Positions 54,121 to 58,905 of a stretch of DNA of 61,690 nucleotides are shown piece by piece. The DNA comes from Candidatus Thorarchaeota archaeon (GTDB lineage Archaea; Asgardarchaeota; Thorarchaeia; Thorarchaeales; Thorarchaeaceae). The translations under genes and the position numbers were made by a program. Every line of letters begins with the position of its first letter. The stretch's first letter is position 1. Where the stretch lies: positions 1 through 61,690 of the forward strand of contig JAGSHN010000003.1 of assembly GCA_029855935.1 (NCBI GenBank), written 5' to 3'. The notes beneath the pieces were generated by a model. The model was not told where the DNA came from and ran no database searches. It saw nothing but the letters and a program-made list of their open reading frames with translations.

Positions 54121-57100
54121 CTGCCAGTCAGGCAGCCGAGGCGCGCACTCAGTGACCTCACAGAGGTCGTTGTGTGCAGTCGCGATCAAAAGAGAACAAC
54201 ACTGGAACGTCCGAAGTCCTCCGAAGAGGAGGCCTCTCACGCTCGCCACGTGAGGGCTCATCGGGACCAGACAGGGCCTCAAGCCTGCAGGGGACTGGCG
54301 CCTGCAACGGCCTGTGGTCCGGCAGGACGGAGTCATTCCCGATGGGGGACGGTCCTACGACATCCGACCCGAGGCGGTGCCGTGCACCAAGGGTCTGGGC
54401 GTCGGGACTGCAGAGGATGAAGGTTGACCATTCCATTCAACACACATACACTGTTCACTCCGTCTGACCGACCCGCCACACAATGTGAGCGGATGGCCAG
54501 ATGGAATGACGAATGGATACACATACTACAGACAGACCATTCGATCTCCGGGTCGAACGGTCCAGTCCCTGGTGGTGACGTGCACAGCAAACAACCAAGA
54601 TGCACCCGTCAGGACACTGTGGCCCAGTGCCACCCGACGGGTATTGCTGCGCCGGTCACATGATTAGACTCGCGTTTCGCTGCTACGGCCGCTGGTGGAT
54701 GACTTGGTTGGCTAGCCGATGAAGGGCGTGACGAGCTGCGAAATGCCGCGGGTAGACGCATGAAGTCTATGATCCGCGGATTCCCGAATGGGACTTCCTC
54801 GTGAGGGCTAATACCCCTCACGGGTCCGGGGTCAAACCCGGATCGGGAACGGGCCGAACTGAAGCATCTTAGTAGGCCCAGGAAGAGAAAACAACAGTGA
54901 TTCCCTGAGTAACAGCGAGCGAAAGGGGAACAGGCCAAACCGAATCCCCTCGCGAAGAGTGAGGGGAGATGTGGTGTTTCGGGCCCGGACTCAAGTGCCG
55001 ACGTGCCCAAGCCGAAGTCGTCTGGAACGACGCGGCGTAGAGGGTGACACCCCCGTAGGCGTAAAGCACGGGCATGTCCGGTGTCCCAGAGTAGCGCGGG
55101 TTGGTCTTCTCGCGTGAAGATCGCAGTCGCAACCTGCGAAGCCTAAATACTCAGCCAATCCGATAGCGTACTATGTAGTGCGAACGAAAGTTGAAAAGCG
55201 CCGCGGAAGCGGGGTGAAAAGCACCTGAAACCAGCGGTCTAGTCAAAGGATGCCGACTACAAGAATAGAAGCTCGACGAACGAACAGGGAGCGATCCCCC
55301 AGTAGGAGTCGAGCCGATCGAGCCGGCATCATCCGTCTTGAAACACGGGCCAGGGAGTTCACGGGCGTGGCGAGAATAAGGCGTATAGCCGTAAGCGGAG
55401 GGAAACCAACAGGCCCGCAGCCGGCTCGTCCGGTCAGGGGCGGCGTGTGAATAGCGCGCGTAGTCACTCCCGTGACACGAGAAACCAGTCGATCTAGGCC
55501 TGGCCAGGGTGAAGCCGGGCGAAAGCTCGGTGGAGGCCCGAGAGGGTTCTGACGTGCAACTCGTTCCGTTGAGCTGGGCCTAGGGGTAAAAGGCTTATCT
55601 AGACTGGTGATTGCTCGTTCTCCGCGAAGTTGGTCGCAGCCAAGCCCTGCCTGAGGTATCACGTGGTGTAGAGCACTTTCGGATCGGAGCGGGGGGCGTA
55701 GAGCCCTTCACCATCCTGAAAACTCCGAAGCTGCGTGAACCGTAGACGGCAGGAGACGGGTGCCCGGGGTAAGCCCGGCTGGCCGAGATGGGGAGAACCG
55801 AGAGTACGGTTAAGGTCCCTAAGTACCGGATAAGTGCGGTGAAGAAGGGCGTCGAGAGCCCAAGACAGTCTGGGGGTGAGCTTAGAAGCAGCTATCCCCG
55901 AACGAAAGCGTAACAGCTCACAGACCGAGGCTCTCGGCCTTGAAAATGGACGGGGCTAAATCCGGTCACCGAGACCGTACGGCACGCCTGCACAAGGGCG
56001 TGGTCCGGTAGCGGAGCGACCCGGTTGGACAGAAGCAGGGCCGTGAGGTCCTGTGGACCGGCCGGGTTTGATGATCCTGGCAGTAGTAACAGCGAAGCGT
56101 GGTGAGAATCCACGTCGCCGAAAGGGAAAGGGTTCTTCGGCAATGCGTCGTCAGCCGAAGGTCAGTCGGTCCTAAGTGGCGCCGTAACTCGAGCGTCACG
56201 AAAGGGAATCAGGTCAATATTCCTGAACCTCGGAAGTACACTACGCGGTGACGCTAAGCCGGACTTGCGACCCATCAGGATAGACCGGGCACCGCCCTCG
56301 CGGTGTCTAACACTATAAGGCTGCTGAGTACCGTAATGGTGAGACGTAGTCGAAAGGTGGAATGGCGGGTGGTCGGACACCCGTCCGGTCAATTCCCGGT
56401 GGCCATGAAAAACAAGTCCGGAAGGATCTTCCGAGCCCGTACCCAGATCTGACACAGGTTCCCTGGCTGAGAAGGCCAAGGCGTATCCGGGTCAATCCTG
56501 CCTGAGGGAAATCGGCCAATTAGCGGCGTAACTTCGGGATATGCCGTGCCTGGGTCGGTGCCTCGCGGTGCCCTCCCAGGTCTCAGTGACAAGGGGGTCC
56601 CAACTGTTTAATACAAACATAGCTGACTGCGAGCGCGTAAGCGTTTGTACAGTCAGTGAATCCTGCTCTGTGCCTGTCTGTTAAAGCTCCGAAAGGGGCC
56701 GAAGCACAGGTCAACGGCGGGACTAACTATGAGTCTCTTAAGGTAGCCAAATGCCTTGTCGGTTAAATGCCGACGTGCATGAAGGGAGCAATGAGGTCCC
56801 CACTGTCCCCAGGAGGAACCGGGTGAACCTACACCATACCGAACAGTGTATGTACCCCCAGCGGGAAGAGAAGTCCCTGCGGAGGTTCACTACGCAGTCT
56901 GTCGTTGCCATCACTGTTGTCGTACAGAGCGTAGTCAGGAGCGACGAAACCGGCTCCCCGGGGCCGGCGGATGCGACCATGGAACACTGACTACGGCAAT
57001 GGCGGTGGCTAACCTAGACCAAGCGCGTCTAGGGACACCGGCAGATAGGCAGTTGGGCTGGGGCGGCACACGGCTGACAAGAGATCAGCCGTGACCAATG

Positions 57101-57254
57101 CTGAGCTCAGAGGCGACAGAAACGTCTCGTCGAGATCAAGGGCATAAGCTCGGCTGACTGGTCCCCGCACAGCAACGGGACCAGGGGCGAAAGCCTGGCC
57201 TAGCGAACCCTCAGTCGCTTGTTGTAGGGCGCTGCGGGATGACAGAAAACTTAC

Positions 57255-57287
57255 ACCTCGTCCAGATGCGTTCTGGCGAGGGAGGAT
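57255..57287 (+). other. 23S rRNA intron 1 (33-nt hairpin intron, BHB/BHL type; after E. coli-equivalent position 2440)
   Basis: Hairpin CCTCG-T-CCAGA-TGCGT-TCTGG-CGAGG; 3-nt bulges AC^A and AT^C; removal restores AAAACTTAC-CCCAGG, which pairs with the H74 5' strand. Confidence 0.8.
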
Positions 57288-57297
57288 CCCAGGGGTA

Positions 57298-57582
57298 TGT
57301 GGCCCCGGTATCTGTCATCTCGTACCGCCCAGAGGCCGGACTTCCTTCCGCGAGGTAAAGTCTGACAGCAATTGACGTGCGATTCTCTCCGGGCTGACCG
57401 GATTGGGTCGTGCGTACAATGCAAGAGAGAAAATGCAGGACGTGAGACACACAGAGAGGTGACACATGCCTGCAGCCTCAGGGCGATACGAGAAGACGGG
57501 TGCTGGCAGGATGAGGTGGTGGTAAGTTTGCGCACTTTGACAACTGCCGCTTCATTCTGAGATGCGTTCTAGCCACACCCAC
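57298..57582 (+). other. 23S rRNA intron 2 (285-nt structured intron, BHB/BHL type; between E. coli-equivalent A2450 and A2451)
   Basis: Closing stem GTGGC/GCCAC, central GGG/CCC helix, bulges TA^T and AC^A; removal restores GGGGTA-ACAGAG; no homing endonuclease ORF. Confidence 0.82.
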
Positions 57583-57701
57583 ACAGAGTTGTCGCGTGCA
57601 AGAGTCCATATCGACCACGCGGCTTGCTTCCTCGATGTCGGCTCTTGGCATCCTCGGGTTGCATAAGGCCCGAAGGGTGCGGGTGCTCACCGATTAAAGC
57701 C

Positions 57702-57737
<36 letters not shown>

Positions 57738-57863
57738 TGGTTTCTATCTGCTGGGGGTGTTGGGTGACTGCGGGCAAGATGAAACCGGTACGAGAGGAAC
57801 GTTTCGTCGCGGCCAATGGTGTACCGATTGTCCGAGAGGGCACTGTCGGGTAGCTAAGCCGTA

Positions 57864-57898
<35 letters not shown>

Positions 57899-58905
57899 GG
57901 ACCCGAAAATAGTCACCCACTTTGCGGGCGTCCCCTGAGAGGGGGCGGCGGGGCTGGTGACAGCAACGCTGAGCTCGTGAACGAGGGATCTGGTAGAAGA
58001 CCAGGTAGATAGGGCGGGAGTGTAAGCACCGAGCCTCGGCGAGGTGTTCAGCTCACCGCTACTAATTCCCGAGGCGTGCGAGTCGAAAGTGTGGCTCGTG
58101 TGGCACCTGGAGTCGGTGCAGTCCGGCTGGTGGGTGCGGAGTGCGGGTCGCAGTGGAAGGGACTGGAGACTGTCAGTGAGTGTGTGTGTTGACAGTGGTC
58201 TGAGGCATAAGTGCCAACCTTCATCCTCTGCAGACCATCTTGATTCTCTCTGATTTGCAGTTCCACTCTTTTGTTTTGGAGCCAGTCGCGTCTTGTATGA
58301 CCGCAGACAGCATCTTTTGGTATTGGGGCACTCTTACATTTGCCGATGTAGTTCTCGGCCGATATCTGTTCTGTCGGGTAAGAGAATGCCTCTTTCATCC
58401 GCGCAAGAAATATTGGCCATTGACAGCCGTGATATCCTGAGAAACAGCGCTGCCTATCCAGAAACAGGTCGGACGTGAGATTTAGTAATGACTGCTGCAA
58501 GAGGGGGCATGCAGTGAGAGTCGGGTCCGGACGGGCGACACAACATGGAGAGACAGGGGGCGCCGATAATATGAGGCGTATCACAACAGGTCTGACGCCC
58601 ACTGTGGCGGGGCACTGTGCGCAGGAGGACGGACATTCACCTGCTCACTGCAACACTCGGAGGGCATCACGAGAATGACCTCGCCGAGAGAGGACAATGG
58701 AAGAGAATGAACAGGAGGCGAAAGAGTAGAAGCATGAGGACGGCGTGGGGAGACGTGAGCCCTCCGAACCCTGTCCTCTGTGACTACGGACTGTCATGTG
58801 TCACCAGTGGCCGATCGCGTCCTCTGCCTATTGTATGAGCTTAAAAGGGGATGTTGGGGAATGACGTGTGTATGGAGTCCTGTCAATCATTGAGGGGGCC
58901 ACCTA

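Follow-up and report, generated by a model that had tools for sequence, protein, structure and literature searches.

The window analyzed here, the whole 61,690-nt stretch of a Candidatus Thorarchaeota genome (G000; contig JAGSHN010000003.1), carries a 23S rRNA gene close to its downstream end (Table 1). This gene gave the single 23S match in its own genome, an assembly of 32 contigs that is 97% complete. No 16S, 5S, or tRNA gene was found within the 54 kb upstream of it (window positions 1 to 54670), and the 16S rRNA gene lies on another contig (C23:17-1261), where it is cut at the contig start and has no large insert in the assembled part; the rRNA genes are thus unlinked. Alignment to the Rfam LSU_rRNA_archaea model, which the initial annotation had proposed as a check, recovered a full-length gene but failed at the 3′ strand of H74, where 342 nt were put in a hairpin loop and the remainder was forced.

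There, the conserved peptidyl-transferase center (PTC) segment is interrupted twice. As read from the sequence, CTTAC at 57250-57254 stands directly 5′ of a 33-nt insert (57255-57287), and a micro-exon of 10 nt separates this insert from a second, larger one; we refer to the two inserts as intron 1 and intron 2. In Escherichia coli numbering, which we take from the established landmarks A2451, Cm2498, ho5C2501, m2A2503, and U2504, exon 1 ends at C2440, the micro-exon corresponds to positions 2441 to 2450, and A57583 corresponds to A2451, placing the insertion sites at 2440/2441 (intron 1) and 2450/2451 (intron 2). As had been proposed, the rebuilt strand pairs with the 5′ strand of H74 at 56875-56887, in which CCCUG is complementary to CAGGG at 57290-57294 and AGGUU is complementary to AACUU at 57248-57252.

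Table 1. Window coordinates of the 23S rRNA gene, its two introns, and the flanking exon segments
Feature	Position	Strand	Remarks
23S rRNA gene	54671-58083	+	Rfam RF02540 LSU_rRNA_archaea, 2404 bits, model positions 1-2987
H74 5′ strand, CCCUGCGGAGGUU (CCCTGCGGAGGTT)	56875-56887	+	Paired in the Rfam consensus structure line
Exon 1 end	57249-57254	+	Central-helix strand ACUU (57249-57252), then bulge bases AC
Intron 1, 33 nt, no ORF	57255-57287	+	Missing from intronless relatives; HBh′ geometry
Intron 1 parts		+	Bulge base A; stem 57256-57262 × 57275-57281; apical hairpin AGAUGCGUUCU (57264-57274); GAGG (57282-57285); then AU
Micro-exon, 10 nt, CCCAGGGGUA (CCCAGGGGTA)	57288-57297	+	Same in all carriers and in intronless relatives
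Intron 2, 285 nt, no conserved ORF	57298-57582	+	HBh′ geometry; missing from intronless relatives
Intron 2 parts, 5′ half		+	Bulge base U; stem 57299-57303 × 57572-57576; long variable hairpin 57305-57506
Intron 2 parts, 3′ half		+	Conserved hairpin 57507-57559; apical-type hairpin AGAUGCGUUCU (57560-57570); ACCC (57577-57580); then AC
Exon 3 start, ACAGAGUUGUCGCG	57583-57596	+	Begins ACAGAG; A57583 is E. coli A2451

The same gene has U at E. coli position 2062 (window 56874) and G at 2448 (57295), both of which are normally A. The string GAAGTCCCTGCGGAGG is also found in the relatives G014 and G349, and other Asgard families read GAAGACCCCGTGGAGC. Matching compensatory changes occur within H74, where U2066 stands with A2444.

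Intron boundaries from intronless relatives

Forty-one relatives were searched, and the site sequence was then extracted. An uninterrupted AAAACTTACCCCAGGGGTAACAGAGTTGTCGCG was found at the site in the same-genus genomes G001 and G004 and in many family members, and G003, also of the same genus, gave one unbroken match across the site. In same-genus and family relatives, AAAACTTACCCCAGGGGTAACAGAG is present in one piece, and removal of the two inserts from the window restores it exactly. The bases flanking each junction differ, so that there is no sliding ambiguity; since the intronless relatives are also uninterrupted, all four boundaries are fixed to the base. The comparison bears out the initial annotation, which had described the PTC segment as split and restored by removing 57255-57287 and 57298-57582, with a micro-exon at 57288-57297 between them. 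No other insert was found in 55094-58080 in comparison with the relative L003.

Splice motifs and folding

In the published motif geometry, exon positions -6 to -3 pair with intron positions -6 to -3, 3-nt bulges are cut after their second base, and a flanking helix is present (bioRxiv 10.64898/2026.10.13.758758). Intron 1 has ACUU opposite GAGG, bulges AC|A and AU|C, and an h′ stem of 7 bp; intron 2 has GGGG opposite ACCC, bulges UA|U and AC|A, and an h′ stem of 5 bp. The first C of the micro-exon is the third base of the intron 1 3′ bulge, and intron 2 uses GGGG at 57292-57295 as its strand of the central helix. Each central helix in the window forms three of its four pairs and has one mismatch (A·G and G·A), in keeping with the relaxed helices initially described, and the predicted cuts after the second base of each 3-nt bulge, next to the closing stems, match the boundaries fixed by comparison. 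The outer exon-exon helix (h) is absent, with zero contiguous pairs in 15 of 15 introns at both sites, and a strict hBHBh′ motif is not formed. Because there is no such outer helix, both introns are of the relaxed HBh′ (bulge-helix-loop, BHL) class. The central mismatches and the missing outer helix count against the assignment; in the window, each intron has its own helix flanking the motif, and its boundaries were fixed independently.

For a motif test, we asked for at least three of four pairs in the central helix (H) and at least 5 bp in h′, and used as a control boundaries displaced to either side by as much as 15 nt. Slid boundaries passed in 3 of 960 and 3 of 882 cases for the two introns (about 0.3%). 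Across both sites, HBh′ was found at the exact boundaries in 13 of 15 introns, and the slid controls passed 0 to 4 times in about 900. The test is not circular, because the boundaries had been set beforehand by comparison.

The region folds at -171.5 kcal/mol, with a z score of -8.06 against shuffled sequences. The unconstrained minimum free energy (MFE) structure favors slightly shifted registers, and enforcing both splice motifs in one fold gives -166.4 kcal/mol, at a cost of about 5 kcal/mol. An exon-exon helix in the MFE structure (GGGAU × AUCCC) was dismissed, as it is not conserved in G015.

Anatomy and probable kinship of the two introns

Intron 2 is a multibranched structure in which a hairpin of 3 bp with a 5-nt loop (AGAUGCGUUCU) stands immediately before the closing stem. 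The same 11-mer, AGATGCGTTCT, is identical in both introns and occupies the same structural place (57264-57274 and 57560-57570). Intron 1 has the plan of intron 2 minus its two middle branches, with the closing stem capped by this 11-mer. In two other genomes that carry both introns, the hairpins of intron 1 and intron 2 agree with each other at 10 of 11 positions (G349) and at 8 of 11 (G015). The 11-mer hairpin was absent from the tRNA introns of this genome as well as from further structured sites, and neither this hairpin nor the conserved 3′ domain was found again in this genome or in the other rRNA introns of its relatives; hairpin look-alikes on contigs C6 and C24 were rejected as TPR-repeat coding sequence. 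Judged by this 11-nt hairpin and the common plan, intron 1 is most likely a miniature relative of intron 2.

Other identities were considered for these elements. Covariance-model searches gave no Rfam match to a group I core, and a group I intron was rejected on several grounds: the base before each 5′ splice site is not U (AC|A and UA|U), the last bases of the introns are U and C instead of G, and the introns have a BHB core. Intron 2 matched no Rfam family at E values up to 1, and its ORFs are mechanical only. A box C/D RNA was likewise rejected for intron 2, whose C-like box is not conserved in relatives and has no Rfam match.

Two further observations concern the hairpins. Loop position 2 is G in both apical hairpins (AGAUGCG) in this genome only and is U or C in all relatives; the shared G could be due to gene conversion between the introns or to a common partner. 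Within the conserved hairpin of intron 2 (57516-57544), GGUAAGUU and (U/G)ACAACU are invariant in all five genomes compared (the window, G015, G349, G014, and G376). These strings, which lie in and around the hairpin loop, resemble the eukaryotic 5′ splice-site and branch-point consensus sequences, a likeness that we take as coincidence.

Distribution and evolution

A pattern search found intron 1 in 3 of 400 genomes of the phylum, namely, this genome (genus g1), G349 (g9), and G015 (g12), all within one family. Among the matches listed in wider pattern scans of genomes and metagenome contigs, filtering left the G015 record only. All three carriers also have the same micro-exon and a homologous intron 2. 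The intron 1 stems read CCUCGUC/GGCGAGG, GGUCUUCAG/CUGAAGGCC, and GAACUG/CAGUUC in the three genera, with GAGG and the bulges constant, and across the two introns RNAalifold identified 18 base pairs in which both partners vary. Three of four central pairs form in intron 1 of all three carriers; the central helix of intron 2 has all four pairs in G349, G014, G376, and G015. Overall, the introns diverge more than the exons do.

About 38 of the 86 genomes in the family have this part of the gene, of which about 28 are intronless here, 7 have an intron at 2450/2451 only, and 3 have both. Site 2450/2451 has been occupied by at least three unrelated intron families. Family A, which includes intron 2 of the window, is noncoding, is 144 to 285 nt long, and was found in five genomes, this one among them. 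Family B (739 to 793 nt) occurs in five genomes (G005, G010, G345, G350, and G375) and carries a LAGLIDADG gene for a protein of 220 to 256 amino acids (Pfam PF14528, E value of 6e-11), such as that at L005:2208-2936 in G010; its sequence is unrelated to intron 2 of the window. A genome of another family, G035, has a 148-nt, ORF-less derivative of family B with the same ends. The third intron at this site, of 344 nt, was found in G028. Neither a tblastn search with family B proteins nor a blastn comparison of family B introns with family A gave a significant sign of a homing-endonuclease remnant in intron 2.

A tree built from the upstream exon places the genomes with intron 1 in three separate clades, and each of them has intronless relatives next to it: G000 is nested with G003 and G001, both of which are intronless, and G349 and the intronless G012 are sisters that differ by about 2%. 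Every intron 1 is accompanied by a family A intron 2, whereas family A occurs alone in G014 and G376. An old presence followed by repeated joint loss and a joint transfer both fit this pattern. Judging from these sequence comparisons, the pair behaves as one unit, whichever history applies.

We tentatively suggest, at somewhat less than even confidence, that intron 1 may be a miniaturized copy of intron 2 that kept the closing stem and the AGAnnCGnUCU hairpin and was retargeted 10 nt upstream by a change of its exon-binding strand from CCCC to GAGG, and that the pair may spread and disappear as one co-converted unit, for which the LAGLIDADG enzyme encoded by the unrelated introns at the same site could perhaps provide mobility in trans. 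If true, a BHB intron would have been duplicated or transposed inside a single rRNA helix in an Asgard archaeon.

Other inserts were observed nearby in the 23S genes of relatives. G012 has a 30-nt hairpin insert (L011:2186-2220; CTTTTTCCCTGC...GCAGGGGGAGAA) in the loop that caps helix 89, around E. coli positions 2475 to 2478, which is absent from G001 and G349 and may be another mini-intron or a small helix extension. Further inserts within the same domain of 23S rRNA occur in relatives (L006 of G007, G398, L009 of G006, and G361) at places equivalent to window positions 57704-57732, which is roughly E. coli 2572 to 2600. The insert in G007 is about 430 nt long and lies at the equivalent of 57712/57713, and those in G006 lie near 57704 and 57731. 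The peptidyl-transferase region of this family is an intron hotspot.

Proposed splicing mechanism and alternatives

This genome encodes a splicing endonuclease, EndA (alpha, on C5), with an N-terminal and a catalytic domain (PF01974/PF02778) and a Tyr/His/Lys triad, together with a second paralogue (beta, on C14; PF01974/PF02778) without the catalytic His. It also encodes RtcB (595 bits). Two-paralogue EndA is present in most Asgard genomes (bioRxiv 10.64898/2026.10.13.758758) and has been linked to a broad substrate range (PMC5829648). From the observed boundaries, motif geometry, covariation, distribution, and enzyme complement, we consider it very likely that the sole 23S gene contains two archaeal protein-spliced (BHB-type) introns, at 2440/2441 and 2450/2451. 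As the cell has no other 23S gene, it must excise the inserts, and both EndA-type introns, 10 nt apart, would have to go before the 3′ strand of H74 could be rebuilt and A2451 placed, as the initial annotation had argued.

We infer cleavage, ligation, and circle formation from the motif, the enzymes, and this necessity. In the precursor, exon strands ACUU and GGGG would pair with GAGG and ACCC near the 3′ ends of the introns. The 5′ cut would fall in the 3-nt bulge, next to the 7-bp or 5-bp intron stem, and the 3′ cut would fall within unpaired sequence, two bases past the central helix. All four cuts would be the work of the two-subunit EndA; RtcB would ligate the 10-nt exon to exon 1 on one side and to exon 3 on the other, and the introns would probably be released as circles. 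Ligation would rebuild the H74 3′ strand and position A2451. The close spacing suggests that two enzymes act in succession and that the 10-mer stays paired during ligation. The pair itself would be a selfish, dispensable element whose two members, being 10 nt apart, would be gained or lost together.

The initial annotation went further and suggested that the double splice serves as a ribosome-maturation checkpoint with an obligatory splicing order. Both introns do break the H74 3′ strand beside A2451, so that no active center could form before both are excised, and the gap from the intron 1 3′ bulge to the intron 2 central helix is only 4 nt, a distance at which simultaneous binding of two enzymes is probably impossible. 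However, the geometry lends a fixed order no support, since the two motifs share no nucleotide, can both be enforced in one fold, and are each left unchanged when the other intron is removed. A checkpoint also sits poorly with the distribution, in which most family genomes with the region are intronless, including the nearest relatives of each carrier, and in which other family members have an unrelated homing-endonuclease intron at the same site, as is typical of selfish elements. Because the nearest relatives lack both introns, a dispensable selfish element fits better than a regulatory device, and we regard the checkpoint with an obligatory order as very unlikely.

Alternatively, the introns might be excised and the exons left unjoined, in the manner of bacterial intervening sequences, so that the 23S rRNA would be in fragments, one of them a free 10-mer. 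Fragmented rRNAs occur in other lineages, and DNA reveals cleavage motifs alone, ligation being invisible there. In this case, however, only about 5 bp would attach the 10-mer to H74 in the catalytic center, RtcB is encoded, and archaeal BHB introns as a rule have their exons ligated (PMC4496867, PMC7714728); we regard fragmentation as very unlikely. An artefact or a dead gene, whether through a misassembled or chimeric contig or a pseudogene beside an unassembled intronless copy, is very unlikely as well. The source is a metagenome-assembled genome in 32 contigs, and X1, the DNA run that matched best (78% of sampled words), probably gave rise to the assembly itself and is hence not independent. 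Yet the same two-intron layout recurs in two assemblies from other genera with diverged intron sequences and is therefore not an accident of assembly, and what remains of the gene scores as a full-length 23S rRNA, with no second copy found in the 97% complete genome. The reading that we prefer is thus a pair of protein-spliced introns that behaves as a dispensable element.

Comparison with known introns and implications

A eukaryotic group I intron site, L2449, lies at a neighboring LSU position. For an Asgard ribosome, the preferred reading would imply that the catalytic center can depend on the tRNA-splicing machinery, with a 10-base RNA held and ligated on both sides. The pair extends the list of intron sites in archaeal rRNA by 23S positions 2440/2441 and 2450/2451 and offers a natural substrate for probing how far two-subunit Asgard EndA tolerates relaxed motifs. 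Such inserts also disrupt covariance-model alignments and primer sites and can thereby distort rRNA surveys of Thorarchaeota. Mechanistic understanding is left unchanged by the pair.

The initial annotation knew of no description of such an arrangement in Asgard rRNA. Our literature search for a micro-exon in archaeal or Asgard rRNA likewise found no description of this pair; the same architecture, on the other hand, has been published for the 16S rRNA of Pyrobaculum. Hairpin introns of <50 nt occur at seven 16S loci (Jay and Inskeep 2015, PMC4496867), and a pair 7 nt apart is described at loci 901 and 908 (PMC4496867). In Pyrobaculum oguniense, the 16S introns Pog.S1205 (a hairpin without an ORF) and Pog.S1213 (encoding I-PogI) are 8 nt apart and are reported as co-converted (Nakayama et al. 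2003, FEBS Lett 544:165, as cited in PMC4496867). In both of these cases and in the window, an ORF-less hairpin intron of <50 nt stands just upstream of a larger intron, with a micro-exon of 7 to 8 nt there and 10 nt here. As with Pog.S1205/S1213, the pair described here behaves as one inherited unit at a highly conserved rRNA site; in our case, co-conversion is suggested by the distribution only. The host gene differs, being 23S rRNA (H74/PTC) in Thorarchaeota here and 16S rRNA in Thermoproteales there. Unlike Pog.S1213, the larger intron here (family A intron 2) has no homing-endonuclease gene or remnant, and unlike Pog.S1205, the mini-intron here shares an apical hairpin with its neighbor.

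The BHB introns in the 23S rRNA of Crenarchaeota (Desulfurococcus, Pyrobaculum, and Aeropyrum; PMC4496867, PMC7714728) similarly have a BHB core formed by exon and intron, are processed by the tRNA endonuclease (here judged by motif), are strongly structured, and occupy conserved functional sites; LAGLIDADG genes are common among them and are found at the present site in family B. They differ from the introns in the window, which have a relaxed HBh′ motif without an outer helix, lie 10 nt apart, and reside in an Asgard host. In Thermoproteales and Asgard archaea, multi-intron tRNA genes (PMC4090602; bioRxiv 10.64898/2026.10.13.758758) also combine relaxed BHB motifs, short exons, two-paralogue EndA, and repeated gain and loss, but the substrate here is rRNA and the apical hairpin is absent from the tRNA introns of this genome. 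Archaeal group I introns at neighboring LSU sites use the same hot region of the PTC (PMC6125680). Overall, the arrangement is real and is of a published archaeal kind, with new sites (23S H74/PTC), a new lineage, and no new mechanism; what is new in this pair is that both introns are ORF-less and are apparently related to each other.
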